Part shown: positions 3,050-50,485 of the stretch, one piece after another
Layout: each line of letters starts with the position of its first letter
Numbering within the stretch: position 1 is the first letter of the stretch
Source: a virus
Taxonomy: Duplodnaviria > Caudoviricetes
Virus record (IMG/VR): IMGVR_UViG_3300028914_000003
Coordinates: 68,636-132,635 of that record
DNA: 64,000 nucleotides
Strand: one strand, 5' to 3'
Notes under the pieces: model-generated
What the model was told of the DNA's origin: nothing
The model's input: the letters and a program-made list of their open reading frames with translations, nothing else
Databases searched by the model: none
Position numbers and translations under genes: made by a program

Positions 3050-3916
3050 TTACCTGCGCATGTCACTGCCTTCCAGCTTGATAGCCCTTGTGATGGCACG
3101 CAGGCGACTGATGACTGCAGATCCGTAGCGTTCCTCGATAGACGTCGGATATGGCCATGGGCCTTTCAATCCAGCAGGCTTCGGTGTCGTACTAAGATTA
3201 GTCGTAATAATAAGCAGCTTCCCCTGACGCTCCGCGGCATCGCACAGCTCGAAGAACGGTGTGCGCCGGTTCCCGTAGGTACGCGTCTCGACAGGTTCCT
3301 TTCCGAGGTCATCAATGATGATACAGCGCTCTTTCATCAGTTCGTCGATACGCTGGTTCATCTCCTGTGCGGACACCGATACATATCTGATTTTCCTCTC
3401 TGCCAGAAACGCCGCCAACACCTTACTGCACAGGCACGTCTTCCCGAGTCCAGGTGTTCCTACAAGGAGCAGCCCCCTACCCTTGTTGTCTGCGAGCCAT
3501 TCCGCGACGCGGTCATAATCCGGCAGCCACCTGCAGCTGTCACCAATGAAATACCTCAGGCCGTCCTCCATGCGCTTACGTGCGTTTTCGACTGCGACAT
3601 GCGGAATCGTCTGTGTACCCTGAAAAGATTCCGTTCCTGACGGCTGCTGCCCGCCACGTTCCTGCAGGACTCTGTACCTAAGCGTGAATCCGCTGCCAAA
3701 AGCCGCTAACAAGATTTCCGACATCAGGCGCTGGCAGAACATCTCCAGATATTCATAGACATAGCGGCTCGGCACGCGCAAAACCACAACGTTCTGTTCG
3801 GCATCATAGCTGTCTATAGCCACGTCCGCGAACCACACGTTGTATATCCGCTCATTATTCACTCTCTCGCGGATCGCCGCGAGACACTGTTCCCATTTCC
3901 TCTGACTCTCTTCCAT
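3050..3916 (-). CDS. DnaA N-terminal domain fused to a DnaC/IstB-like AAA+ ATPase (putative helicase loader)
   Basis: N-terminus WEQCLAAIRERV..YNVWF..LRVPSRYVYEYLE resembles DnaA domain I; Walker A GTPGLGKT, Walker B IIIDDLGKE, ITTNL, ERYGSAVISRL. Confidence 0.8.
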   Translation of the reverse strand: MEESQRKWEQCLAAIRERVNNERIYNVWFADVAIDSYDAEQNVVVLRVPSRYVYEYLEMFCQRLMSEILLAAFGSGFTLRYRVLQERGGQQPSGTESFQGTQTIPHVAVENARKRMEDGLRYFIGDSCRWLPDYDRVAEWLADNKGRGLLLVGTPGLGKTCLCSKVLAAFLAERKIRYVSVSAQEMNQRIDELMKERCIIIDDLGKEPVETRTYGNRRTPFFELCDAAERQGKLLIITTNLSTTPKPAGLKGPWPYPTSIEERYGSAVISRLRAITRAIKLEGSDMRR

Positions 3917-3932
3917 GCCGTTTCCTTATTAT

Positions 3933-5129
3933 CTACCATTCTTCCATGTCTACATGCCCGGAAGACCGCTGACCGCACGTGTCGACCACCTTCTGAGCTG
4001 CCATCTCGTCAATGAAGTTACGCAGAGAGACCAGGGCATGACCGCGGTAGTCGCTGATGGTTACGCCCTCAATACGTCCTGCACGAACATCTGCGTAATA
4101 CTGGCGAAGCTCCAGTGCCTTGTCACGCAGCCGTGTGTACTTCGCGGCAGGTATCTGCTTGATAAGTCTGTTGGCATCCGTCACGTTCAGTCCCAGTGAT
4201 ACGATGCCGGAACGCAAGTCCGTAGCGTCCTGGCTCTCCAGTTGTGCGCGCTTGATGTTTCTACCCAAGTCCGTTAAGTGTATATGGAACACTATATTCT
4301 CCGGCGTACCGCGCTTCTTGCCTGCAGGATACTCGAACTCATAGTCGAAGGTGCAGTCGATGCGGTCGGCTGCTTCGGCAATCTCCTTGCGGGCTGGCTC
4401 CAGCACACGCTTCTTGAAATCGTTGATATCCTTATATTTATCTACCGTCACCTTCTGTGTCGTCTCGTCATAGGACGTGAGTAGTATCTTTCTCAGTTTC
4501 TCGTATGAAATAACCCACCTCTCAAGCTGCTTGTTCGCGTTGATAAGCAGGTATATACGACCGGCGTAGTTGCTCGAAAACAGGAAGATGGCGTCCTTCA
4601 GGTAGCGGTGGTATGGTGTGATATGGAACAAATCCTTTGCCGTCGATTCCGTCATGTGCAGGTAGATGTTCTGCCGGCGCTTTCCGGGAATATCCTTGTC
4701 GATGTCGATAACAGGAAATGCCACGGTATAACGCATCTTCCCGTCCACCTCCTTCTCATACACGATACGCTGCATCGCCTTTGCCGCCACGTCGACATCG
4801 CTGTAGTGTGTGGGTTCCACACCCAGTTCCGAGTAAGCCACCTTGAAGGTAAGATACTTTGAGCGGTCGTCCTGCGAGATAGGCTTATAGTCTTCTGACT
4901 CGAACAGGTCGCCGGTAAATCCGACCTTCGCCTTTCTGTCCAGTGCGCGCCTGATTTTGTCCTGCAGCTTCTCCATGATGGTCGTCTGTATGCGTGTCTG
5001 CATCATCGACATCTCGCCGTTCAGGTACGTGATTGTGATAGGCTGCATAATCATCTTACGCTGCTCTACGGGGACGCTGCTGATAATCTCCTGCTTCAGC
5101 TGCTCTGCTTTGCGTGATTTTCGTGCCAT
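3933..5129 (-). CDS. plasmid-type replication initiator (Rep_3/RepB-like winged helix)
   Basis: SSNYAGRIYLL and YKDINDFKKRVLEPARKEI motifs; lies next to an iteron array. Confidence 0.85.
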   Translation of the reverse strand: MARKSRKAEQLKQEIISSVPVEQRKMIMQPITITYLNGEMSMMQTRIQTTIMEKLQDKIRRALDRKAKVGFTGDLFESEDYKPISQDDRSKYLTFKVAYSELGVEPTHYSDVDVAAKAMQRIVYEKEVDGKMRYTVAFPVIDIDKDIPGKRRQNIYLHMTESTAKDLFHITPYHRYLKDAIFLFSSNYAGRIYLLINANKQLERWVISYEKLRKILLTSYDETTQKVTVDKYKDINDFKKRVLEPARKEIAEAADRIDCTFDYEFEYPAGKKRGTPENIVFHIHLTDLGRNIKRAQLESQDATDLRSGIVSLGLNVTDANRLIKQIPAAKYTRLRDKALELRQYYADVRAGRIEGVTISDYRGHALVSLRNFIDEMAAQKVVDTCGQRSSGHVDMEEW

Positions 5130-5162
5130 AATAAATGAGTATTGTTGTAACTTTTGGCCGCG

Positions 5163-5725
5163 AAGTTACAAAAATGTCCGAATAGTTCCAAGCGTTTCAG
5201 TATTTATTTTCAGACGGTTAGGCTTATTTAACATTTACAAATAACAAACATAGTTACGTTTTTGTCCGAGAATAGTTGCGTTTTTGTCCGTGTTCTAACC
5301 AGTACTTCCGAAACTGTCCGAATGTGTCATAGTTACGTTTTTGTCCGAGAATAGTTACGTTTTTGTCCAGAAAGAACTACGGATCTGTCCGGATGCTATT
5401 ACGCTTTTGTCCGAGTACACTTCCGGAACTGTCCGAATAAAGTTCCGTATATGTCCGAATTACATATTATATATAACTGATTTTCAGTAAGTTGCATAAC
5501 GACAATATACTATATCTTATATATACCAATAATAAAAATAGAGATTTGTCCGACTCATTCTTTTTTATTTTTTTTATCTGCAGAGTAAATCCATGTGAAG
5601 CGTAAGTATCTGATTATCAGCTCTCCCTTATTTGGGCCTATAATCCGGACACATTTGTAACTTGGACAAAAACGTAACTCGGACATTTCAGTAACTCCAT
5701 TTTCAACTCGGACATTTATGTAACT
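5163..5725. repeat. iteron array / replication origin
   Basis: Consensus AGTTACGTTTTTGTCCG. TGTCC cores at 5342, 5364, 5386, 5408, 5430 and 5452 (exact 22-bp period), more near 5175, 5263, 5285 and 5315. AT-rich core ~5460-5580; inverted copies at 5646, 5663, 5680 and 5709. Confidence 0.9.
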
Positions 5726-5879
5726 AAAGATGACGACCTTGAAGATAAGTCTTGTCGGCAACACCTCTCCCCCTACCCCCTCCCCTATGTGGAAGTTAAA
5801 AGTGATAAGAGAAAATACAAACCGCCAGACAACGGATGTGCCTGGCGGTGTGAAACGGTGACGGATTGTCACTGGTTGC

Positions 5880-7454
5880 TTAGCCCTTCTGATTCTCTTT
5901 TTTGAAGGCGTCACGGGCTGCGGCCAGGCCGTACTTGAAGTCCTTCTCCGAGTCGATGCCTGCCGACTCCAGGTACCTGACGTAGAGATCGCAGGTCACG
6001 TCGTCGTCGCAGCGGACGATACGCTCGCGGGCGAACTTCAGGATGTCGCGCTCGGTGATGAACTCGGCGTTGAAGGTGACGCTGCGCTGGCTATTGTAAT
6101 AGTCCTCGAAGGCGCGTATCACATTATCCTTCTCGCCGCGCTGCAGTGCTTCCATGCTGCTGACGGGCAGCACCACGAGGTTGACCTGCGGGTTATAATC
6201 CCAGTTACCGAAGGCTCCGAGGTTGCCACAGATCTGGCAGAAGCAGTCCATGCGCCCCATCAGTCCCGTCGGCGGGAAGTAGAGCTCCTTACCGGCGATG
6301 GTGTTCACCGGGTACTGCAGCTCATGGCGGTGCTTGCGATAGTGGGCGACGGTGAAGTTCAGGTCCTTGCGCGCCGGAGGCGGCACGTTGAAGTCGGCAG
6401 GCGTGAGCGAGCGGTCGTAGAGCAGGCGGTCGAGGTCTGCATCGCCACAGATACGTGCGATGTTGTAGCCGTTGTGGATGAGCGTGTCAAGCTCCTTGAT
6501 TTTCGCAGGACCTACGTTGCGCTCTCCACGGATGACGACCTGGATGTTCTTGGTGATGGCCGGCTTCAGGTCGGCGCCCATCTCCTTCAGTGCCTCGCGC
6601 AGCTGCTTGCGCCCGATATGGAAGAAACCTGTCAGCACGACGGCTGCACCGTAGATGGGGTTGGTATCGGCTGTATTCAGGCTCGAGTAGTCCACGTCGT
6701 CTGTTCCGTCCTCTGACTTGTCGAACTGTTTGTTGTAGAAGGTGGGTGCTGGTGCCGGTTCCACTGCTCCATCGTCGCCAGACGACGAGCTGGTTGACGC
6801 CAGTGCTTCTGCAAACAGGTCGAGCTGCTGTGCCTGATAGTGACGGTTCTTCTCATTCTCTGCCTCGCGCTTCTTCCTGTCATACTCCGCCATCATGCGA
6901 TTTGACAGTTCCCAGTCCGGCTGCCTTCCCTGCTGCCAGGCGATGATGGCCTGCGCACACATGACAGAGTCCGCTCCTGCGTCGTGGTGGTTCTCGTACG
7001 GGATGCCGAGCGCATAGCAGCATGCCTGCAGTCCCCTTCCGTCGTTCCACGACTTCATGCACGGACGCGGGAAGAGAAGGATTGACTCGTTGATGACAAG
7101 CGGCTCATGTGGGATATGATAGTAGTCGGTGAGATTCTTCTCAATCACCCGCCTCTCGGTGCTGGTGGCATTGTGCGCCCACAGCTGGCGACCGCGAAGG
7201 TAAGGCTCTATCTCCGGCCACACCTCCGGCAGCGTCGGCGAGTCCTCGGTGTCGGCTGGCGTCATGTGATGGATGGCCGTCTGGCCTGCTCCGTAGCGGT
7301 TGTCCTTCGGTCTGATCTTCCATGTGTGCGGCTGCTGCACCACCCCACCCTTCACCTCGGCCAGCCCGAACTGGCAGATATACTGGTCGTGGTCTGCATA
7401 TTCAACGTCGATAACCACGAAGTCGTCTTTAGGTTTTTCGTTATATGTATCCAT
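5880..7454 (-). CDS. DEDDh 3'-5' exonuclease with BRCT domain(s)
   Basis: VVIDVE, WAHNA and HDAGADS exonuclease motifs; BRCT-like VVLTGFF..RKQL..MGA..ITKN and a second BRCT-like segment. Confidence 0.85.
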   Translation of the reverse strand: MDTYNEKPKDDFVVIDVEYADHDQYICQFGLAEVKGGVVQQPHTWKIRPKDNRYGAGQTAIHHMTPADTEDSPTLPEVWPEIEPYLRGRQLWAHNATSTERRVIEKNLTDYYHIPHEPLVINESILLFPRPCMKSWNDGRGLQACCYALGIPYENHHDAGADSVMCAQAIIAWQQGRQPDWELSNRMMAEYDRKKREAENEKNRHYQAQQLDLFAEALASTSSSSGDDGAVEPAPAPTFYNKQFDKSEDGTDDVDYSSLNTADTNPIYGAAVVLTGFFHIGRKQLREALKEMGADLKPAITKNIQVVIRGERNVGPAKIKELDTLIHNGYNIARICGDADLDRLLYDRSLTPADFNVPPPARKDLNFTVAHYRKHRHELQYPVNTIAGKELYFPPTGLMGRMDCFCQICGNLGAFGNWDYNPQVNLVVLPVSSMEALQRGEKDNVIRAFEDYYNSQRSVTFNAEFITERDILKFARERIVRCDDDVTCDLYVRYLESAGIDSEKDFKYGLAAARDAFKKENQKG

Positions 7455-11619: not shown

Positions 11620-12288
11620 ATGATTACCTACAAACTCGGAAGCACTGGGCCTGTGGTAAAGCAGATACAGAAGGCCCTTGGACTGATTCAGGACGGCATT
11701 TTCGGCAAGCTCACCCGCGAGGTGCTTATACAGTGGCAGCGCGACCACGGGCTCACGCCAGACGGCATCGCCGGTCCCGCCACGCTCGCAAAGCTGTTGC
11801 CAGAGGCTGCCGCACGCACCATAGGACTGAAGAAATCAAGGCGCAAGATTACGGACATTGTCGTACACTGCACAGCCACCAAGGCCGGACAGGACCTGTG
11901 TGCTGCAGACATCCGCAGGATGCACAAGCGCCAGGGATGGTCCGATATCGGCTACCACTATGTGATTCGTCTGGACGGCAAGATCGAGTTCGGACGAGAC
12001 GTAGACATTGTCGGTGCTCATGTCAACGGACACAACGCCAACAGTATAGGCATCGTATATGTCGGAGGCCTTGACAAGGACGGCAAGGCAACGGACACAC
12101 GCACAGACCTGCAGAAGGCTGCGCTGCGCCACCTGCTCAAAAACATGAGGACAATGTATCCGACGGCCAGGATAAGCGGACACCGTGATTTCTCTCCAGA
12201 CAAGAACGGCGACGGTATCATATCGCCATGTGAGTGGATAAAGCAGTGTCCGTGCTTTGACGCGAAGACCGAATACAGTGATATTTAA
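11620..12288 (+). CDS. endolysin: peptidoglycan-binding domain plus N-acetylmuramoyl-L-alanine amidase (Amidase_2)
   Basis: DGIFGKLT..WQRDHGLTPDGIAGPATL; IVVHCTAT, DIGYHYVI, GAHVNGHN, GHRD, CPCFD. Confidence 0.95.
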   Translation: MITYKLGSTGPVVKQIQKALGLIQDGIFGKLTREVLIQWQRDHGLTPDGIAGPATLAKLLPEAAARTIGLKKSRRKITDIVVHCTATKAGQDLCAADIRRMHKRQGWSDIGYHYVIRLDGKIEFGRDVDIVGAHVNGHNANSIGIVYVGGLDKDGKATDTRTDLQKAALRHLLKNMRTMYPTARISGHRDFSPDKNGDGIISPCEWIKQCPCFDAKTEYSDI

Positions 12289-13800: not shown

Positions 13801-14244
13801 ATGGCAGACATTTTGAAAATTGCAGAAGAGATCTTTCATCTCACGTCACAGGAGTTTGAGGAACTTAACCACAAGCTCGGGGAAGTAAGTCACAGTGAAT
13901 GTACCTACCAGCAGGACATCTACGAGACGGGTATGCTGTCGTTCAGCAGCGCGCTATGGGCATTGAAGCACGGCAAGCCCATCTGCCGTGAGGGATGGAA
14001 CGGAAAGGGCATGTTCGTCGTCCGTCAGGTTCCTGCACATATCACGGGAGACGTCATCCCGAACATGCAGTCACTCCCGCAGAGCGCCAAGGACATCCTG
14101 ATGTGCCGTGAGGAACCGCACATAGACTACACCTGCCAGATGCTTATCATCCGTCAGGACGGCCGTGCCGACTCATGGGTGCCTTCCGCTGCGGACGTAT
14201 TGGCCGAGGACTGGAAGATCTACAAGGAAGAGATGTATGTTTGA
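13801..14244 (+). CDS. tad2: DUF2829 / Tad2-like anti-defence sponge protein
   Basis: FSSALWALKHGKPICREGWNGKGMFV and WVPSAADVLAEDW match Tad2-family motifs. Confidence 0.8.
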   Translation: MADILKIAEEIFHLTSQEFEELNHKLGEVSHSECTYQQDIYETGMLSFSSALWALKHGKPICREGWNGKGMFVVRQVPAHITGDVIPNMQSLPQSAKDILMCREEPHIDYTCQMLIIRQDGRADSWVPSAADVLAEDWKIYKEEMYV

Positions 14245-44390: not shown

Positions 44391-44890
44391 GAACGTGCCG
44401 CGAATATGAGCTTGACGACCTGCTGGCCGTCACCGCTATCCCCGTCGACGATTTTCCGCTGGGGCTGCAGGCATGGCAGCTGAAGCCTGTCATCCCCGGT
44501 GAGGCGTTCTCGCCGGTGAAGACTAACGCCATCGTCATAGGCCAGCAGCCTGCCACCCCCGGCGGCATGCTCGTGCCTATCGTGCGCATGTCCGGCAAGG
44601 TGAAGGATGAAGAGGACGATGCCGTAGCCGGGCGCAGGCATGTCGTCACCGTGACCTGTGAGGCCGATGACCGCGACCTGGCGGCCGACAGCGGCGGCAG
44701 GACTGTTCCCGACTATATGCTGCAGCTGGAGCGCACGCCGAGCCATCTGCTGCTCATGTTCCGTGGCGGCACACAGGCTTTCGTCGCTGCCACCCGCGAC
44801 ACCTATGTCTGCAAGGTCGACCGTGACGGTGCCAAGACGGGCATCACCCTGAAGGTCGAGGACATGATGGGCATACAGAGAATTTTGTAG
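44387..44890 (+). CDS. hypothetical protein
   Basis: ATGA overlap with the upstream gene. Confidence 0.7.
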   Translation: MRTCREYELDDLLAVTAIPVDDFPLGLQAWQLKPVIPGEAFSPVKTNAIVIGQQPATPGGMLVPIVRMSGKVKDEEDDAVAGRRHVVTVTCEADDRDLAADSGGRTVPDYMLQLERTPSHLLLMFRGGTQAFVAATRDTYVCKVDRDGAKTGITLKVEDMMGIQRIL

Positions 44891-44911
44891 TAGTTTGTGT
44901 GTTAATAATGG

Positions 44912-44947
44912 TGGGGTGCCGGTACCAACATGTGGCCGGCACCCCAC
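44912..44947. terminator. hairpin between convergent operons
   Basis: tggggtgccgg/ccggcacccca stem. Confidence 0.6.
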
Positions 44948-44996
44948 AGTCTATCACGGCAAGTGATGGATATCGGGTGATGTGAGATGCAGGGTA

Positions 44997-45281
44997 TTAT
45001 CTTAACAGGCCCGCCAGCTTCCTGAGAGCCCAGATTCCTGCCTCGTAAGCAGCGTTGCCTGCAACGTTTGACAGGAAGTCCTGCCCAAAGGTCTGCTGGG
45101 TCTGCTGCAGCTTTGTCAGCTGTGCCGACTGCTGCTGGAGTGCTTTCATGATATCGTCGGTGCTATGCTGCTGCATGGCCATCCTGACGAAGAGTTGTCT
45201 TTCCTCGGGTGTCATGCGGTCGTAGATGTCTTCAAGCATCCTTCGGCGCATGAGCGCTTCGGCGGCAGCAGCATAGCCCAT
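44997..45281 (-). CDS. hypothetical Gln-rich protein (94 aa)
   Basis: Last gene of the minus-strand module; likely start MGYAAA. Confidence 0.65.
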   Translation of the reverse strand: MGYAAAAEALMRRRMLEDIYDRMTPEERQLFVRMAMQQHSTDDIMKALQQQSAQLTKLQQTQQTFGQDFLSNVAGNAAYEAGIWALRKLAGLLR

Positions 45282-45316
45282 GACATGAAAACGTATTAAA
45301 TCACGCCAGGTACGGC

Positions 45317-45817
45317 CTACCACAGGAAGTACTTGCGGATGTTATAGACGCCGTCCTTGTCCTTCAAGGTCTTCAGGGCCAGCTTATAGCAGGCGGTGAT
45401 GATATCCTTGTCGTTAGGACTGAGCGGCTTTCCGAGCAGCTCGGCAATGACGTCGCCGGCATCGCTGTACTGCTTGTTCATCTCGACCCACAGGGCGCAA
45501 CTGTTATAATAGGGAGCATCCTCTGTGGGAAGGCCGAAGGACTCCATGGTCTGCTTCCATACATCACGCGACCATGGTCCTTTCGGGTCCATGCCGGCGA
45601 TGATTTTCTCTGCCTCTGCCTTGGTCAGGTACTGCTTCCACTTGATGCTCTCGAGCTGGTCAATCATCTCCTCGGCCTCACTTGGCAGCTTCTGGATCAT
45701 GACGTCCATCATCTTTGTCATCACACACCCGAAGGCCTTCATGTTCTTCGGGTCTTTCGAGTTGGCCATGTAGTCGTACAGACTGTCATAGCGTTCTTTG
45801 AGTTCTGTTGCGTTCAT
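45317..45817 (-). CDS. conserved helical phage protein of unknown function
   Basis: WVEMNKQYSD and LALKTLKDKD, recalled from a widespread gut-phage family. Confidence 0.65.
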   Translation of the reverse strand: MNATELKERYDSLYDYMANSKDPKNMKAFGCVMTKMMDVMIQKLPSEAEEMIDQLESIKWKQYLTKAEAEKIIAGMDPKGPWSRDVWKQTMESFGLPTEDAPYYNSCALWVEMNKQYSDAGDVIAELLGKPLSPNDKDIITACYKLALKTLKDKDGVYNIRKYFLW

Positions 45818-45924
45818 CTTATTTTCAAATTAAACAGTTTTTCACCTTGCTTCAGACCTGCTTACTTGCAGGACACCTGCAAGAACAGGCTGAAGACGTG
45901 GAATTTTATTTCCTTCTTTTTGAA

Positions 45925-46368
45925 TTAGCCGCGGTCCTGGCCTTCTTCTTCGCCGTTGTTTCCTTTTGTGGCTGTGCCTTTTCCGCTGCGTGAGCGCCGC
46001 CGCATGCCGGGCACGGTGTCTCCGGCACGCTTCTTGTCGTCATCGGCGGTATCTGCTGCTGAAAAAATCTTTCCATAGATGTAATCATAAAGTCTGTCGA
46101 CAAGTCCTTCCGTCATCTCCAGCCAGATGGCTGCATAGGCAGAAAGGAAGGATATGGCGAGCAGCCGTGCCAGGCCGGAGGGGTTGGCGGCAAAGCCGTC
46201 GCCGCTCAGGCCGTATGCCAGTACACACCAGAACGTCAGGCACCGCGGGCAGCTGATCACCGGCAGCGCCTTGCGCTTCCTGAAGACCATCCTGATAGCC
46301 GTACCTATCAGTCCCATGTGGTTCGCTGTGGTACAGACGAACACGATCGACGCTATATCCTTCCACAT
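45925..46368 (-). CDS. membrane protein with CxxC motif
   Basis: Hydrophobic segments flanking SCPRCLTFW. Confidence 0.65.
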   Translation of the reverse strand: MWKDIASIVFVCTTANHMGLIGTAIRMVFRKRKALPVISCPRCLTFWCVLAYGLSGDGFAANPSGLARLLAISFLSAYAAIWLEMTEGLVDRLYDYIYGKIFSAADTADDDKKRAGDTVPGMRRRSRSGKGTATKGNNGEEEGQDRG

Positions 46369-46553
46369 TGTCAAGTTCCTACTAAGTTCGTATCAAGCTC
46401 CTACTAAGTTTGCCTTTGAACATTCCGCAGGCATGTCAAGAGATGTCAAAGCTGTTAATTCCAAGAGCCGGGTGGAATCCACTTTGTCAATCTCAGAGCC
46501 ATTATCAATACCAATGTGCAAGCACATCAATATTGATAATGGTCCGGGATGCT

Positions 46554-47030
46554 TTACGCTCCTGCTGTCACCTCGATAGATGTCGTGATGGCAATCTGGT
46601 TCGTACACGGCTTCGTAGCACGACAGCATCCGCATCCGTTGTTCACATAGTAGGTGATGGGCTTCGGGCTGGCGTTGATAGTACCCAAGGCGAGCTTTGG
46701 CTGCGTGGCCGACGTTGTGGTGATGCAGTCCTGCCATGTGACGTACTCTGTTTCGGGCTTGCACGAACCGCACGGGCAGTAAGTCACAGTTCCAGAAATC
46801 AGAAACTCCTGGCAGTAGATGCCGTTTCCGAGGTCAACAGGGTTGCCTACAGGCGAAATCTGCAGGTCGGAGATGACGGGATGCGCTGGGTCGGCCAGCA
46901 GCATCTTGCGGTTGCCACAGGTGTAGTGCGTCAGCCCGAAGGCATACACACCGGCGGTCTCGGATGCCAGCAGGAAATCCTTCCTGTCCGAGCCGTTCTT
47001 GCAGTTACAGTTACAATTACAGTTCATCAT
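46554..47030 (-). CDS. Cys-rich beta protein (14 Cys in 158 aa)
   Basis: NCNCNCNC, YCPCGSC, GCGCC. Confidence 0.75.
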   Translation of the reverse strand: MMNCNCNCNCKNGSDRKDFLLASETAGVYAFGLTHYTCGNRKMLLADPAHPVISDLQISPVGNPVDLGNGIYCQEFLISGTVTYCPCGSCKPETEYVTWQDCITTTSATQPKLALGTINASPKPITYYVNNGCGCCRATKPCTNQIAITTSIEVTAGA

Positions 47031-47147
47031 GTTTTGTTTTTGTGTTGTTGATTATCTCGGGAGCCTACTCTCGTGCGCCGCTCCCACCATGCGCTGTATG
47101 TCTGCCGGTGTACCACCTTCTGTACTGGTACACCCCTGGTACACCCC

Positions 47148-47468
47148 CTATTCCTGTCCTGTGAAGAGGTCGCCCTGGAAGGGTAGGGGACTGGACAGCT
47201 CTGCCTCCGACGACTGTATCGCCGCAATCTTCGTCTCCAGGTCCGTGATGCGCTGTGACTGGATATCCAGGCGCTGGATGATGCTGTTCATCACCTCGAA
47301 GGACTGGAACGACAGCATCGAGGCGCAGCATATCTGCTGCTGCATGGAGCATCGTCTGCAGTCTTTCGGACACGGGCGCGGCTGACCGATCTGGCTGGCT
47401 GACGGTGCCTGCATCCCCTCTTGCTTTGGAGCGGCGCCTGCCTGCTCCTGTTGTTTTGTCTCTGCCAT
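47148..47468 (-). CDS. Cys-cluster coiled-coil protein
   Basis: CPKDCRRCSMQQQICC followed by heptads. Confidence 0.7.
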   Translation of the reverse strand: MAETKQQEQAGAAPKQEGMQAPSASQIGQPRPCPKDCRRCSMQQQICCASMLSFQSFEVMNSIIQRLDIQSQRITDLETKIAAIQSSEAELSSPLPFQGDLFTGQE

Positions 47469-47535
47469 AATTCTGAGTTTTGTTAACCGTCCGTCGGCGA
47501 TACGTCATACCGTTTGTCGCCGATTTCCGCGTTTC

Positions 47536-47736
47536 TTATCTGAAATGATTGATGATCTGATTCTTGACTAAGATATTCTTGTTCCATTTCGGAACGGCCA
47601 TGGCAATCTTGCTGCCGGTGACCATGATGCCCATCTCTCCGAGCTGGTCGACAAAGCCGCCGAGCGCATGGCGCGCCTGCTCTGCCTCCTGCTCGTCTTC
47701 GGCGTATATCTTAATGGTTATTGGAAATACTTTCAT
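47536..47736 (-). CDS. hypothetical protein (66 aa)
   Basis: ORF in operon context. Confidence 0.65.
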   Translation of the reverse strand: MKVFPITIKIYAEDEQEAEQARHALGGFVDQLGEMGIMVTGSKIAMAVPKWNKNILVKNQIINHFR

Positions 47737-47763
47737 CTTGCCGTGACTGGATTTAATGGATAA

Positions 47764-48144
47764 TTACTCTTCGTTGATGGGCGGCAGCGGTGCGGCTGCC
47801 GGTGCCTCTGCTGCCATGCCCGGTATGGTGAGGGGCGGCAGGCGGTTGCCCGTCATGCCACGGATAATCTCATACACCTGCAGCAGTCCCTTCTGGTGCT
47901 CGCCGCCCCAGGAGAGGATACCGTTGAGCGTGTTCTTCGTCGAGTCCATCCATGTCGGTTCCGGCTGGTCCACTGTCGGCAGCTCCTCTATTACGTCCGC
48001 GAAATAGTCGCGCAGCTTCCTTGCTTCCTCGATGTCACCCTTGGCAATCACCAGGCACTGCTGCGATATCGACATCTTACTCGTCGGCTGTATCATACGT
48101 ATCATGTTGAGCATCTCCTCTCGTTGTCTTTTCTTGTTCCACAT
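47764..48144 (-). CDS. hypothetical protein (126 aa, start MWNKK)
   Basis: ORF in operon context; Pro-rich C-terminus. Confidence 0.7.
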   Translation of the reverse strand: MWNKKRQREEMLNMIRMIQPTSKMSISQQCLVIAKGDIEEARKLRDYFADVIEELPTVDQPEPTWMDSTKNTLNGILSWGGEHQKGLLQVYEIIRGMTGNRLPPLTIPGMAAEAPAAAPLPPINEE

Positions 48145-48276
48145 ATTGTTGCCGTGACGGAAATAAGATGGACGGAAAGTGCTTAATTGTACATTTCTGT
48201 ACATTATAAGACCGCTTGAACAGGCTTATTCTGACGTTTTTGTACAAATAAGCACATTTCCGGCCAAATCAACATC

Positions 48277-48870
48277 TTAGCCGTTGCATCCGCATCCGGG
48301 GCAGCCGCAGGGAGCGGGAGCCGAGTAGATGGTGACAGGCGTCGGGTTGAGCGAGCTCTTGCCTGTGACGGCATCGGCGAAGGTCTGTGTCATGATCTGC
48401 TGCACGGAGGTGTCGATGGCAGAAGTCTGGCTGACCTGTGCTGACTGTGCTGCGCTCTGCTGACCGCTGATCGTGTCGTTGATGGTCTGGGTTACCGTGA
48501 GACCCTGTGCCACGCGTGCGTCTGTCTCGCGCTGCAGGCCGACCAGCAGACGATCGATGTTGTCCTTGGTGTTCGCGTTGCCCTGGGCGATGAGCTGGAG
48601 GGCTGCATTGTACTGGGCGTTGGCCACCTTCTCGGAAGCAACGGCTGCCTCCTTGGCCTGACCGGCCTTGGCGCTGGCGTACATGTTGTTAAGAACTGCG
48701 CTGGCGATAACACCGACGAGGGCGGTGCCGCCGAAGACAAGGCCTGTGACGGCCACGGCGCTGGGGCGCTTCGACTCCATGTGCATGGTCTTCACCTGCT
48801 CGTAGGGAGTCATCCCTTCCTTCTCGCCCATAGACTTCAGGGCCATAAGATCTTGCATTTCAAGTGCCAT
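48277..48870 (-). CDS. TM/coiled-coil protein ending in CGCPGCGC
   Basis: Hydrophobic Gly-rich segment, Ala/Gln coiled coil, Cys-Gly tail; first gene after the promoter. Confidence 0.75.
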   Translation of the reverse strand: MALEMQDLMALKSMGEKEGMTPYEQVKTMHMESKRPSAVAVTGLVFGGTALVGVIASAVLNNMYASAKAGQAKEAAVASEKVANAQYNAALQLIAQGNANTKDNIDRLLVGLQRETDARVAQGLTVTQTINDTISGQQSAAQSAQVSQTSAIDTSVQQIMTQTFADAVTGKSSLNPTPVTIYSAPAPCGCPGCGCNG

Positions 48871-48918
48871 TGTGTAAAGTTTTTGTGGTTAATAATGTGA
48901 ACTTGGCTGTTGCCGTCA

Positions 48919-49006
48919 CAAAGATACACACAGAAAACTGCTTCTCCACCAGCAATGTGGCGGTATCGCATGAAGCCGTCTCTTCATGCGTGAAGCGTGC
49001 TCTTCA
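48919..49006 (-). promoter_or_regulatory. promoter with two palindromic operators
   Basis: TATCTTTG at 48919-48926 with no -33 TTTG; TGAAG-N6-CTTCA at 48971-48986 and 48991-49006. Confidence 0.7.
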
Positions 49007-49013
49007 CAAGCCT

Positions 49014-49241
49014 TTACACAGTGGCGGACAGGCGGCTGACGATGTTATACACCTGCCTGTCGGAGATGCCGTAGCGCTCCGCCAGCGTCAGCAGCACGAC
49101 CTTGCGACTGGCATTGGATGCCGTCATTGCCGTATAGTCACGGTAGAGGTCGCAGTACTTGTAGTCATCCAGACGGATACCCGCCTGTTTCATCTTTTGA
49201 AGAATCTCCTTGTTAAATTCGATTAAATCTGCACGCGTCAT
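49014..49241 (-). CDS. small Mor-like HTH regulator (75 aa)
   Basis: LAERYGISDRQVYNIV helix-turn-helix. Confidence 0.75.
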   Translation of the reverse strand: MTRADLIEFNKEILQKMKQAGIRLDDYKYCDLYRDYTAMTASNASRKVVLLTLAERYGISDRQVYNIVSRLSATV

Positions 49242-49276
49242 GATTGTTATTGGTGAAAAATGATTACCTTTGCAGC

Positions 49277-49415
49277 CTCTTACCTTCATTTCCGGAAAAA
49301 AGCATCCGACACCCGCTGAAGAAGAGGATCTATTGTCCCCGGCCTTTCCGCGAGTGTCGGATAGCGTAGAAAGAAGGTAAGAGAGCTTTGAGCGTGCAGG
49401 CCGGGGACATTTCTA
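49277..49415 (+). ncRNA. structured RNA, possibly pseudoknotted, antisense to the HTH leader
   Basis: TACCTTTG at 49265-49272; perfect helices 49277-49287/49373-49383, 49304-49312/49354-49362 and 49334-49345/49398-49409. Confidence 0.65.
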
Positions 49416-49540
49416 TGGGGCGGTGGTACGGGACATGACAGTCCCGGCTGCCGCCTCTTCCGTTTGAGGGATGGGGCCGTCCCCGCCAGGCGGCATGGCA
49501 GCGGCCGCTGGGGGCCTGTCCGATGCCGCGCTGTATAGGC

Positions 49541-49576
49541 GAAAGATATACTTTGTGGCACGAATCGTCAAGGGCG
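49541..49576 (-). promoter_or_regulatory. phage late-type promoter motif
   Basis: CGCCCTTG-N20-TATCTTTC on the minus strand. Confidence 0.65.
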
Positions 49577-49665
49577 CGCCCGATGACACGCCACACACAA
49601 TCCCCACTTGCCGTCGCGGCTGGTGGGGACATGCAATCAAAAATAACTTAGCTTCTTATTAACAA

Positions 49666-49695
49666 GGACAGCCTGCCTTCGCAGGTGGGCTGTCC
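49666..49695. terminator. hairpin at the end of the tail operon
   Basis: ggacagcctgcct-tcgc-aggtgggctgtcc. Confidence 0.6.
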
Positions 49696-49771
49696 GTACA
49701 TAGCCAATGAAATAAAATTAAACTAATCTAATAACCTATTCTATGAAAAAAAACATTGGAAACGAGTCCGC

Positions 49772-49942
49772 CTACCGCTGTAGGTCAGCCGTATTGTCTA
49801 TCTCCACGCCGGTGACAACCGTCTTCCCGATCATCAGCGTCTTCAGGTTGCGTACCAGCCGCATGACATCCTTCTCTGTCTCGCCGTCCGTCTCGCGACC
49901 GGTCTGTACGGTCAGCACGACCGTTACCTTCTTCTCCTTCAT
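49772..49942 (-). CDS. small hypothetical protein (56 aa, MKEKKVTVV)
   Basis: Directly follows the upstream gene; not in the ORF track. Confidence 0.55.
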   Translation of the reverse strand: MKEKKVTVVLTVQTGRETDGETEKDVMRLVRNLKTLMIGKTVVTGVEIDNTADLQR

Positions 49943-49948
49943 ACGCTT

Positions 49949-50485
49949 CTATATCAGTGCGCCAAGCAGCGCCATATACACCGGCAGCATAGCCGTCACT
50001 TCAAGAAGGAATACTCCCTTGCCGGCAGTAGCATCATTGACCTTGGCTATCCACTTTACCTCCTGCTCAAAGGTAGAGAGAACAGCCAGTACAGCCCATA
50101 GCCCCCATAGCATCAGCCACCAAGGACTGATAAGTGCCACGCAGATCTGAGACATCACACCACCGAAGATACCGAGGTTATAATGCCAGCACCAGCGGAC
50201 ATCCTCATCACCGGGGATCAGCGGCAGAGCACCGACAACACCGATGCTGGCGATAGTGACATAGGCTATCATACCCTGCCACCAAATATTGCCCATCACA
50301 TCAAGCAGAGGAATAGCCAGCAGGCCTACTATCAGCCACACCCATACACTCCACAGGTACTTGCCTATCAGAGGCAGGTCATAGACGATAGCACTGATGC
50401 TCACCGGCAACTCCTTCTCCTTGTTAATGGCAGCGGCAATGCCTATCGCCGCCACCAATATACTTAGTATTACTAACGTAATCAT
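49949..50485 (-). CDS. multi-pass membrane protein
   Basis: Five to six hydrophobic segments. Confidence 0.75.
   Translation of the reverse strand: MITLVILSILVAAIGIAAAINKEKELPVSISAIVYDLPLIGKYLWSVWVWLIVGLLAIPLLDVMGNIWWQGMIAYVTIASIGVVGALPLIPGDEDVRWCWHYNLGIFGGVMSQICVALISPWWLMLWGLWAVLAVLSTFEQEVKWIAKVNDATAGKGVFLLEVTAMLPVYMALLGALI

Follow-up and report, generated by a model that had tools for sequence, protein, structure and literature searches.

What does a block of small, cysteine-rich genes do in a large rumen phage of Prevotella type, and how is it switched on? Phage lysis and late gene control are poorly understood in Bacteroidota, the dominant bacteria of gut and rumen, and this block is kept in order amid capsid and tail exchange without an assigned function, fold, or family beyond one DUF. 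We analysed a window of 64,000 nt, by which the whole stretch of DNA is meant. The reading that we tentatively prefer, at a little short of an even chance, is that a portable regulatory cassette drives a conserved nine-gene cargo, and that the cargo makes a late inner-membrane complex linked to lysis.

The cargo genes and their conservation

The cargo genes, and the hairpin that follows them, are as follows.

48277-48870, minus strand: p2, 197 aa, with acidic N-terminal tail, Gly-zipper transmembrane segment, Gln-rich coiled coil and C-terminal PCGCPGCGCNG cluster
47764-48144, minus strand: p3, about 126 aa, helical, with conserved C-terminal PLPPINE
47536-47736, minus strand: p4, 66 aa
47148-47468, minus strand: p5, 106 aa, with low-complexity N-terminus, C-x3-C-x2-C...C motif and coiled coil
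46554-47030, minus strand: p6, 158 aa, 14 Cys, all-beta sandwich (AF2 pLDDT 89.7)
45925-46368, minus strand: p7, membrane protein; the first of its transmembrane segments is followed by a loop with a conserved CPxC
45906-46076, minus strand, other frame: p7b, 56 aa, basic, with PCPxC and a Lys/Arg tail (35 of 36 loci)
45317-45817, minus strand: p8, 166 aa, Pfam DUF7841, all-alpha (AF2 pLDDT 93.4)
44997-45281, minus strand: p9, about 94 aa, helical; its C-terminal helix is amphipathic or of membrane type
44911-44947, no strand assigned: GC-rich hairpin between the module end and the convergent head operon (z -3.45)

Is this a unit at all? A sequence-only reading of the same DNA had taken it for a self-contained one, and synteny agrees. 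The order of p2 to p8 is the same in all 40 distinct viral contigs recovered, it holds also in contigs whose capsid shows no more than 23-25% identity or escapes detection, and it recurs in MAGs of Prevotellaceae and in BS162P1, a cultured Bacteroides phage. The module is common to hundreds of Bacteroidota phages; clustered at 90% identity, p2 falls into at least 698 clusters, all unnamed, and p6 into 118. The eight genes listed by the earlier reading are all found, and their Cys motifs are as it gave them, but a ninth gene had been missed, p7b, which lies across the 3' end of p7 in a different reading frame. The Cys enrichment that the earlier reading had remarked on is also real: the proteins of the module contain 2.96% Cys, the remaining long ORFs of the phage 1.39%.

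Family searches with p1 to p9 gave no holin, endolysin, spanin or other functional family. The score of p8 against DUF7841 (PF25223) is 31.2 bits, above the cut-off of 25.2 (E 2.7e-7); neither a solved relative nor a matching fold was found for its confident AF2 model. For p6 there is no Pfam hit, and Foldseek returned nothing at E <= 0.001 from PDB or BFVD; its best VIA match is a CS/HSP20 sandwich (Z 6.3), a common arrangement. None of the module proteins carries a signal peptide or lipobox. Their Cys motifs are probably cytoplasmic, and thus suggest metal sites rather than disulfides.

Leader RNA, regulator and cargo promoter

The elements upstream of p2 are listed below in the direction of transcription.

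49666-49695, minus strand: terminator-like hairpin, GGACAGCC...GGCTGTCC then TTGTT
49543-49575, minus strand: phage late-type promoter motif, GCCCTTGA-N19-TATCTT, a match to GCCCTT-N21-TANNTT
49261-49418, minus strand: conserved leader RNA element, about 150 nt, pseudoknotted (covariance-model hit)
49265-49272, plus strand: TACCTTTG, a -7 box of host type opposite to the leader strand, candidate antisense promoter
49014-49241, minus strand: p1, 75 aa, C-terminal helix-turn-helix (HTH), phrog_17790
48991-49006, no strand assigned: putative distal operator dyad, TGAAGCGTGCTCTTCA, TGAA-N8-TTCA, centred 72 nt upstream of the -7 box
48971-48986, no strand assigned: putative proximal operator dyad, TGAAGCCGTCTCTTCA, centred 52 nt upstream of the -7 box
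48919-48926, minus strand: host-type Bacteroidota -7 box, TATCTTTG, predicted promoter of the cargo operon

The terminator-like hairpin closes the upstream operon of tail-fibre and membrane genes. Behind it, the late-type motif had been proposed to feed the HTH gene, which is supported for this phage, and the motif itself is non-random: GCCCTT-N21-TANNTT occurs 11 times in the 64-kb window where 0.03 copies are expected, and the remaining copies precede portal, head and capsid genes. Among the loci compared, the late motif stands ahead of the leader only in this phage and in one other (L007).

The leader had been described as hairpin-rich, and a structured fold is found at 49230-49545 with a z-score of -4.85. 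The covariance model, whose seed did not include this window, hits the element with E 7e-7. The element is a long imperfect hairpin in which strand B (49370-49383) pairs with B' (49277-49290) and C (49346-49362) with C' (49304-49320), while an upstream strand A (49398-49409) pairs with the apical loop A' (49334-49345) to form a pseudoknot. Hairpins of 23-48 bp, mostly 30-47 bp, with z from -2 to -10, were present in all 25 relatives tested. Comparison of relatives gives compensatory changes in the B helix. For A:A', 80% of cells are paired, and there are 25 double changes against 8.7 in shuffles, a count reached by 0 of 500 shuffles; the pairing also outscores every slid register. The model gives a single match per locus, on the operon strand, and the leader is always a single copy directly before the HTH gene. 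In BS162P1 the model found no match, and Rfam covariance models run on 44800-49900 gave two sub-threshold chance hits and no leader family. The most conserved stretch of the leader is the sense-strand motif GCAAAGGTAA at its 3' end. On the opposite strand TACCTTTG may be an antisense promoter; other promoters in this genome read TATCTTTGCA.

The 75-aa HTH gene is present as first read, and an alignment of 15 relatives favours the start codon giving 75 aa over the alternative of 91 aa. What kind of regulator is it? Membership of the Mor/C type had been suggested and finds no support. The score of p1 against Pfam Mor (PF08765) is 15.9 bits, below the cut-off of 24.9, and the match spans only residues 52-72; the 75 aa contain only a generic C-terminal HTH. 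Sub-threshold Mor matches in 5 of 15 relatives are no better than those to the generic HTH_23, and a PDB profile search with p1 places Mor (1rr7) at E 1.3.

The two palindromes were correctly noticed. TGAAG-N6-CTTCA occurs twice in the window, with starts 20 bp apart, against 0.08 expected, and a search of the whole genome (132,635 bp) that tolerated one mismatch found no further site. It was likewise right that the TATCTTTG promoter has no -33 box, as TTTG was looked for in its -33 region and is absent. Do the dyads go with the regulator? Exact TGAA-N8-TTCA dyads are found in 9 of the 10 loci whose HTH belongs to the subfamily with an xDRQVYNI recognition helix, and in 0 of 35 loci with other HTH types. 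The subfamily dyads are 20-21 bp apart, with conserved half-sites and unrelated 8-nt spacers. In 28 of 38 loci the ATG of p2 is preceded, at a distance of 45-94 nt, by a TAnnTTTG box; in all subfamily loci with a recognised box the proximal centre is 51-52 nt and the distal centre 71-72 nt from it, and in all of these except L048 the -33 TTTG is missing. Judged by sequence, the cargo promoter has the geometry of class I (upstream-site) activator dependence: same helix face, fixed distance and co-variation with the regulator. These comparisons fit a role of the HTH protein as activator of a promoter without a -33 box. Thus, of the HTH-gated cascade proposed earlier, the gating is in keeping with the co-variation and the fixed phasing, while the Mor/C assignment is not supported.

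Could the HTH protein be a repressor or autoregulator instead, or could the dyads work at the RNA level, as hairpins attenuating read-through? In that case the promoter of the cargo would be constitutively active with the host sigma factor, and no two-step cascade would exist. It does have a good host-type -7 box, each dyad could form a stem of 6-9 bp, and many relatives carry a conserved palindrome or hairpin immediately 3' of the -7 box, which is a classic operator position. But the dyads are set 45-80 nt upstream of the box, without overlap, and the 51-52 nt phasing, the dyad spacing of about two turns and the lack of a -33 box agree with upstream activation. The half-sites are also kept although the 8-nt spacers vary, and some dyads are imperfect stems, e.g. 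TGAAA...CTTCA. We regard repression or attenuation as unlikely.

Under the preferred reading of activation, the late promoter at 49543-49575 would, late in infection, give rise to the folded leader with its pseudoknot and to the 75-aa HTH protein. Dimers of this protein would bind the two TGAA-N8-TTCA dyads, whose centres share a face of the helix and lie about 62 and 82 nt ahead of the start site, and recruit host RNA polymerase to the host-type -7 promoter without -33 element, and p2 to p9 would be turned on.

What the cargo may do

There is a further question, what the cargo is for. The regulator does not help to answer it, because phages without DUF7841 use the same HTH/dyad cassette for a cargo that is unrelated and rich in Gly, Gln and Tyr. 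The gene neighbourhood in relatives speaks for the envelope and for lysis. In at least 11 of 33 loci, about a third and not every one, the module has genes for Phage_holin_4_1, Amidase_2, DUF5675, Peptidase_M15_3 or DUF6808 as its immediate neighbours. In relatives the module sits beside or within holin-endolysin cassettes, contiguous and co-oriented in several loci. One of them (L066) begins with a p2-like gene and two further genes; then come DUF7841, another gene, the holin, DUF5675 and a lipoprotein with a C-terminal transmembrane segment, this last outside the module. In the phage studied here the endolysin is 33 kb from the module, which speaks against the link to lysis; in its favour, the phage's own amidase (11620-12288) has neither a signal peptide nor a neighbouring membrane protein, and no Phage_holin_4_1 match was found in the whole genome.

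Does the module itself contain a lysis protein? No peptidoglycan hydrolase family was found within p1 to p9, and no holin-family match for p2, p7 or p9, though holins vary widely, and both p2 and p7 are membrane proteins of small size. In outline p2, which combines a coiled coil and Cys residues with its transmembrane segment, resembles an i-spanin such as lambda Rz, but the module offers no lipoprotein partner for a two-component spanin. Moreover, where relatives have a holin and an endolysin beside the module, those roles are already filled there, which counts against a lysis function. The preferred complex would probably assemble on the cytoplasmic membrane, anchored by p2, p7 and perhaps p9, with p3, p4, p5, p6, p7b and p8 as cytoplasmic partners joined by Cys/metal sites, and would act at or around lysis, e.g. 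in lysis timing or envelope disruption. A bolder version, which we think rather unlikely as a whole, is an undescribed multi-protein machine of the inner membrane that acts at the very end of infection, activator-gated and leader-tuned, and supplies a missing step of Bacteroidota lysis, either lysis timing or outer-envelope disruption. The intermolecular Cys/metal knuckles that keep it together would be the C-terminal tail of p2, the CPxC of p7 and p7b, the C-x3-C-x2-C of p5 and the Cys-rich p6, and the leader RNA would tune the cassette's own expression, possibly with an antisense transcript driven by a host promoter.

Two other functions have to be weighed. The sequence-only reading had thought of a spore-coat-like or protective body, and the cargo might accordingly form a structure that is associated with the virion or protects the particle, e.g. 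a coat or decoration cross-linked through Cys. The module is indeed fed via a late promoter and, in this phage, lies between tail-fibre and head genes; p6, with its many conserved Cys, is modelled with confidence as a beta-sandwich, and its nearest named Atlas clusters are spore-associated (SipL/DUF3794, CryBP1, DUF8305), though with chance-level scores of 0.83-0.85, and p2 has one weak PHROG match to a 'virion structural protein' family (E 0.0029). Such a structure is hard to reconcile with transmembrane segments in at least p2 and p7, possibly p9, with a module that stays while capsid and tail genes are replaced, and with the lysis genes that flank it in relatives. Fold matches to capsid, decoration or coat proteins were not found, and disulfide cross-linking is unlikely for soluble proteins without signal peptide in strictly anaerobic hosts. 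The protective-body idea has found no backing in fold, family or context, and we consider it very improbable. The cargo might otherwise be a membrane system for host interaction or anti-defence, unrelated to lysis, e.g. for superinfection exclusion, envelope remodelling or redox/metal sensing. It would simply occupy an accessory-gene hotspot in which lysis genes, reverse transcriptases and glycosyltransferases accumulate too. Reverse transcriptases, integrases, Stealth enzymes and glycosyltransferases do occur in the module flanks, the regulatory cassette has been swapped onto other cargo, and the C-x3-C-x2-C...C of p5 could hold a metal cluster. Yet a fixed order of seven to nine genes across very divergent phages is unusual for exclusion or anti-defence cargo, and several loci have lysis genes that adjoin the module in the same orientation. 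We judge this function unlikely, though less so than a coat.

Whatever the cargo does, the regulatory parts are directly testable: a 75-aa regulator, a pair of 16-bp dyads, a host-type promoter without -33 and a covarying leader RNA. They could yield an inducible expression device for Bacteroides and Prevotella. The cultured carrier BS162P1 grows on Bacteroides salyersiae and makes the module accessible to experiment.

Comparison with known systems

BS162P1 (OP172706) carries a homologous p2-to-p8 block in the same order (BS162P1_00095 to 00101). It differs in that the block is annotated as hypothetical throughout, the upstream regulator is of another type, the leader has no match and p9 is absent. 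No publication naming BS162P1 or DUF7841 was found; p8 belongs to DUF7841 by score, a family without known function.

The leader may be compared with the ncRNA units of UG27 reverse transcriptases (bioRxiv 10.64898/2026.09.22.753630). Each is a structured RNA of roughly 150 nt that combines a main hairpin with a pseudoknot, the two are found in one phage group, and several loci have reverse-transcriptase genes close to the module. However, the conserved motifs are not the same, and the leader is single-copy, directly before the HTH gene. The units of this genome's own UG27 array carry internal-loop motifs of the type TTTAG...CATCG...AAAGC, which the leader lacks, and the leader model gave no match in that array; by motifs and array membership the leader does not qualify as a UG27 unit.

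The lysis module of crAss001 has a matching genomic position, between tail-fibre and head genes, and its gp27-gp30, like other lysis cassettes, include small membrane and coiled-coil proteins, but they show no homology to the module proteins. Unlike lysis cassettes, the module has neither an enzyme domain nor a partner that is a lipoprotein, and the number of its components far exceeds that of any lysis cassette described.

In phage Mu, a small DNA-binding activator works from an upstream dyad on a promoter without the upstream sigma-contact element. The p1 system is like Mu Mor, Mu C and the Ogr type of P2 in that a small phage protein, made from a promoter of an earlier class, is the inferred activator, and like Mu in that it would switch on a promoter without that element via an upstream dyad. 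It differs from Mor/C in the 75 aa of p1 and its score below the Pfam Mor cut-off. It also has two dyads near -62 and -82 where Mu has one abutting the -35 region, a promoter of the Bacteroidota -7/-33 type, and a pseudoknotted leader RNA before the regulator gene.

Genome setting and conservation of the unit

The viral record is complete, at 132,635 bp with 127-bp direct terminal repeats, and the window holds its bases 68,636-132,635. A plus-strand block at about 9-45 kb of the window carries endolysin, portal, giant-protein, protease and capsid genes. The minus-strand block runs from 64 down to 45 kb, with tail-fibre-like genes and, as its last part, the studied operon.

Features of the unit and its borders (window positions, strand in brackets where assigned)
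49666-49695: terminator-like hairpin preceding the unit, 5' boundary
49543-49575 (-): late motif GCCCTT-N21-TANNTT, with 11 copies in the window vs 0.03 expected
49261-49418: conserved leader element, about 150 nt
49265-49272 (+): host-type -7 box, TACCTTTG then CA, opposite the leader, kept as GCAAAGnTAA in nearly all relatives
49014-49241: HTH gene p1, 75 aa
48971-48986 and 48991-49006: TGAAG-N6-CTTCA dyads, the sole matches in the whole genome, also when one mismatch is allowed
48919-48926: -7 box TATCTTTG, fitting the Bacteroidota consensus TAnnTTTG, with no TTTG at the -33 position
45906-46076 (-): p7b, ninth cargo gene, conserved in 35 of 36 loci; it is out of frame with p7, whose 3' end it overlaps
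44911-44947: GC-rich hairpin after the unit, 3' boundary

Because hairpins bound the unit on both sides, the earlier description of the operon as self-contained is reasonable. Is it also conserved as a unit? A search seeded with p6 gave 40 viral contigs of 5.7-145 kb, and the order p2, p3, p4, usually p5, p6, p7, p8 and often p9 is kept in all 40. It recurs in the cultured Bacteroides phage BS162P1, whose genes 00095-00101, all annotated as hypothetical, correspond to p2 to p8. Thus the synteny check that had been proposed was run, and non-conservation is refuted. Within the module identities range over 30-80%, also in contigs whose capsid protein is only 23-25% identical or undetectable. The families are unnamed, with at least 698 clusters at 90% identity for p2 and 118 for p6. 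At the DNA level the module region has no match among 50,697 phage records, and a search of full-text literature found no paper on BS162P1 or DUF7841.

Relatives of the DUF7841 protein p8 are encoded on MAG contigs of Prevotellaceae, Bacteroidaceae and Bacteroidales and in the chromosome of Segatella copri HDD04, and the predicted host of the phage is for this reason a Prevotella-type member of the Bacteroidota. Two other genes of the window may be mentioned here. Just upstream of the unit, 49949-50485 (-) encodes a five-TM protein, u1, whose position is kept in four relatives (L003, L009, L012, L014); as a relative of holin_4_1 it was rejected (hhalign against the holin_4_1 cluster, probability 1.9%). 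A 147-aa protein at 13801-14244 (+) has a Thoeris anti-defense 2-like (Tad2-like) domain (E 3.5e-18).

The regulator gene and the cargo promoter

The sequence-only reading had described a late-type promoter motif upstream of the leader, a 75-aa HTH gene, two TGAAG-N6-CTTCA palindromes and a cargo promoter lacking a -33 box. Each of these is present, and the start codon of the HTH gene fits an alignment of 15 relatives which all have MK.. at the same point. The remaining copies of the late motif in the window stand before portal, head and capsid genes. Ahead of the HTH gene the motif is found in this phage and in one relative (L007); since it is missing from the other loci of the HTH subfamily, the first step of the predicted cascade, from late motif to HTH gene, is established for this phage only.

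What kind of regulator is the HTH protein? It belongs to phrog_17790 and its C-terminal helix-turn-helix is generic. Mor is one of several Pfam matches below threshold, and a PDB profile search with the family gave nothing significant, so the membership in the Mor/C type that had been proposed is unsupported. The functional side of that analogy holds comparatively, in the dyads, the phasing and the missing -33 box. A search seeded with the HTH subtype of the window (recognition helix xDRQVYNI) gave nine further loci. Exact TGAA-N8-TTCA dyads are present in nine of these ten subtype loci, the window included, usually as a pair spaced 20-21 bp; they cover the HTH stop codon or stand immediately behind it. 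The half-sites are kept while the 8-nt spacers are unrelated, and in every subtype locus with a recognisable -7 box the distance from dyad centre to box is 51-52 nt for the proximal and 71-72 nt for the distal dyad. All subtype loci but one are without TTTG in the -33 region. Among 35 loci with other HTH subtypes, none has a dyad of this kind 200 nt or less from p2. An activator would be expected to leave just such a trace: half-sites that are kept, spacers free to vary, a fixed helical phase, and dyads that co-vary with the HTH. Neither an RNA hairpin nor a chance palindrome would do so. The reading of the HTH protein as a putative dimeric activator acting from upstream dyads thus holds up in comparison.

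The same regulatory parts also stand before other genes. In five loci of this HTH subfamily (L048, L049, L050, L052, L055) the gene behind the same cassette begins MSDMK, unlike p2; its product, as seen in L049 and in L056 (the region around L052), has 360-385 aa, is Gly/Gln-rich and carries a CQCCC motif. In L056 (G003:92000-104000), at 3458-7290, the cassette of HTH, double dyad and -7 box, together with the leader, stands ahead of this unrelated cargo, in which proteins of 114 aa (MGCNFNIP), 113 aa (Gly/Tyr-rich) and 131 aa (HEFDH motif), among others, are also encoded. No DUF7841 homolog was found in the four records searched, those with L048, L049, L052 and L055. Because the same cassette precedes non-p2 cargo in records without DUF7841, the HTH regulator cassette is, by this comparison, a portable switch.

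The cargo promoter is itself conserved: 28 of 38 loci have a TAnnTTTG box 45-94 nt upstream of the p2 ATG, and in most cases a hairpin or palindrome comes directly after it, with an A-rich leader behind. This conserved hairpin or palindrome in the p2 5' UTR, directly 3' of the -7 box in an operator-like place, is weak in the window itself; examples are L027 5340-5370 and L004 3690-3730, with sequences such as CCTTGTCAAAGCGCGATGACAAGG and TGTAGCGGG...CCCGCTACA. Three loci (L006, L054, L055) have an additional perfect palindrome, GTTGCGATATTATCGCAAC, about 12-31 nt 5' of the -7 box at the -33 location, which may be the site of a second regulator.

The leader RNA

The stretch of about 295 nt from the late motif to the HTH start codon has a far more stable fold than its shuffled versions (z -4.85), in agreement with the hairpin-rich leader noticed earlier. 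Its conserved element consists of an A-rich run, a C-rich strand A, a long imperfect hairpin (B and C with C' and B') and a 3' motif GGGTGCAAAGnTAA; the apical loop A' of the hairpin is G-rich and complementary to strand A. The hairpin is formed by all of 25 relatives of little sequence identity; it has 23-48 bp, in most cases 30-47, at z of -2 to -10, and its B helix shows GC/AU/UA/CG exchanges in a plain MAFFT alignment. For the long-range pairing A:A', 80% of cells are paired and both sides have changed in 7 of 9 pairs. Double-change cells number 25, vs 8.7 +/- 2.6 in shuffles (none of 500 as high), and the register is better than every slid one. A covariance model seeded with 12 relatives, leaving out the window, gave a single match 5' of the HTH gene for every one of 25 sources, among them the window (E 7e-7), and without exception the match is on the strand of the operon; three additional matches were sub-significant. 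A weak second match (E 0.013) lies at L030 13358-13483 (+), some 6 kb past the module in the downstream direction.

Which strand acts, and as what? The U-G wobbles in A:A', the surplus of G-U pairs when the leader is read as sense RNA, and the late motif directly before strand A in L007 favour a functional leader RNA on the sense strand. The 3' motif is also the reverse complement of TTAnCTTTGCA, the extended -7 box of other promoters in the genome. Since it reads as such a box on the opposite strand, host-driven antisense transcription of the leader is possible; RNA from this box would begin exactly at the base of the long hairpin. A terminator/antiterminator switch is unlikely, because the competing strand falls downstream of the putative terminator. 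As an RNA unit of the UG27 reverse-transcriptase type the leader was rejected: it is missing the motifs of the genome's own array, and the leader model matches nothing in that array. Rfam gave no match to the leader. Genes of about 390 aa lie a few kb from the module in L008, L012, L034, L036, L041, L049 and L056. In L049 and L056 the sequence, with its YADD/YVDD motif, identifies them as reverse transcriptases, and the other five are assigned through three RVT_1 matches and cluster membership, not member by member. No RNA link between these genes and the leader was found.

The cargo, lysis and known systems

The features given earlier for the eight cargo genes are all present, but the count was short by one, as p7b had been overlooked. 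The p7b peptide reads M.RF.QQ...PCPxC followed by a basic Lys/Arg tail, and its coding sequence overlaps that of the acidic C-terminal tail in p7. The Cys enrichment of the operon was borne out: Cys makes up 2.96% of the cargo vs 1.39% elsewhere in the phage, concentrated in p6, p5, p7b, p7 and the p2 tail.

Pfam and PHROGs searches with all module proteins matched only DUF7841 (p8) and phrog_17790 (the HTH protein); with 114 family members as queries, four single PHROGs matches appeared, which were not traced to members. No family, PHROG or solved structure accounts for any cargo protein, DUF7841 being a family without an assigned function. The AF2 model of p6, confident like that of p8, is a beta-sandwich (pLDDT 89.7) with no Foldseek match in PDB or BFVD and, VIA-wide, only CS/HSP20-like sandwiches at Z 5-6, a generic arrangement. 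That of p8 is all-alpha (pLDDT 93.4), with no Foldseek match in PDB and a top VIA-wide match of Z 4.9, again generic; a PDB profile search with the p8 family gave nothing, and no fused or longer DUF7841 forms were found, which is weak evidence. The C-terminal QGDLF of p5, considered as a sliding-clamp motif, is not kept in relatives. Clear TM segments are present in p2 and p7, and p9 has a C-terminal amphipathic or membrane helix, visible in its sequence and in relatives and unflagged by the hydrophobicity scan; the remaining cargo proteins are without a signal peptide. From the charge pattern at the p7 loop, the Cys motifs probably lie on the cytoplasmic side. The hosts are strict anaerobes, and cytoplasm-facing Cys in such cells would argue for metal sites, not disulfides.

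What might the cargo do? In at least 11 of 33 distinct loci, lysis-type genes (Phage_holin_4_1, Amidase_2 + PG_binding_1, DUF5675, Peptidase_M15_3 or DUF6808) lie immediately 5' or 3' of the module, in most of them on its strand. On a 128-kb Prevotella MAG contig (L066) a reduced module is contiguous with a lysis cassette, in the order p2-like Gly-zipper/Cys-tail protein, two small proteins, DUF7841, one gene, holin, DUF5675 endolysin and lipoprotein. This last protein (L066 7964-8407 (+), 147 aa), encoded directly after the holin and endolysin, has an N-terminal lipoprotein-like signal and a C-terminal TM segment and may be the unimolecular spanin of a Prevotella phage. In the window, the endolysin (11620-12288 (+), PG_binding_1 + Amidase_2) stands alone, with no signal peptide and no adjoining membrane protein, and Phage_holin_4_1 has no match in the whole genome; some membrane component must therefore be supplied from elsewhere. 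The best-supported reading, at somewhat less than even odds, is that the cargo would form a late inner-membrane complex acting at or around lysis. Gene context is the sole functional signal for the cargo, and this reading rests on it, that is, on the neighbourhood in about a third of the relatives in an analysis that was computational throughout. The coat that had been suggested is a less likely reading, with nothing specific in its favour.

How does the module compare with known systems? The HTH switch appears to operate similarly to the late activators Mor/C of Mu and Ogr of P2; unlike these, it is not a demonstrated member of their families and is fitted to the -7/-33 promoter type of Bacteroidota. 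In the comparison phage crAss001, the corresponding slot between tail fibres and capsid gene holds an annotated lysis module, gp27-gp30, to which sequence comparison gave no homology. The outline of p2, with a TM segment, a coiled coil and Cys residues, resembles an i-spanin, and the position and outline of the cargo are like those of a lysis-accessory module. Unlike lysis cassettes, the cargo contains neither an enzyme nor a lipoprotein, and to our knowledge it has many more parts than any cassette described. We rate the finding as a putative activator-gated, late or lysis-linked phage module, and there is a real chance that its cargo is something categorically new.
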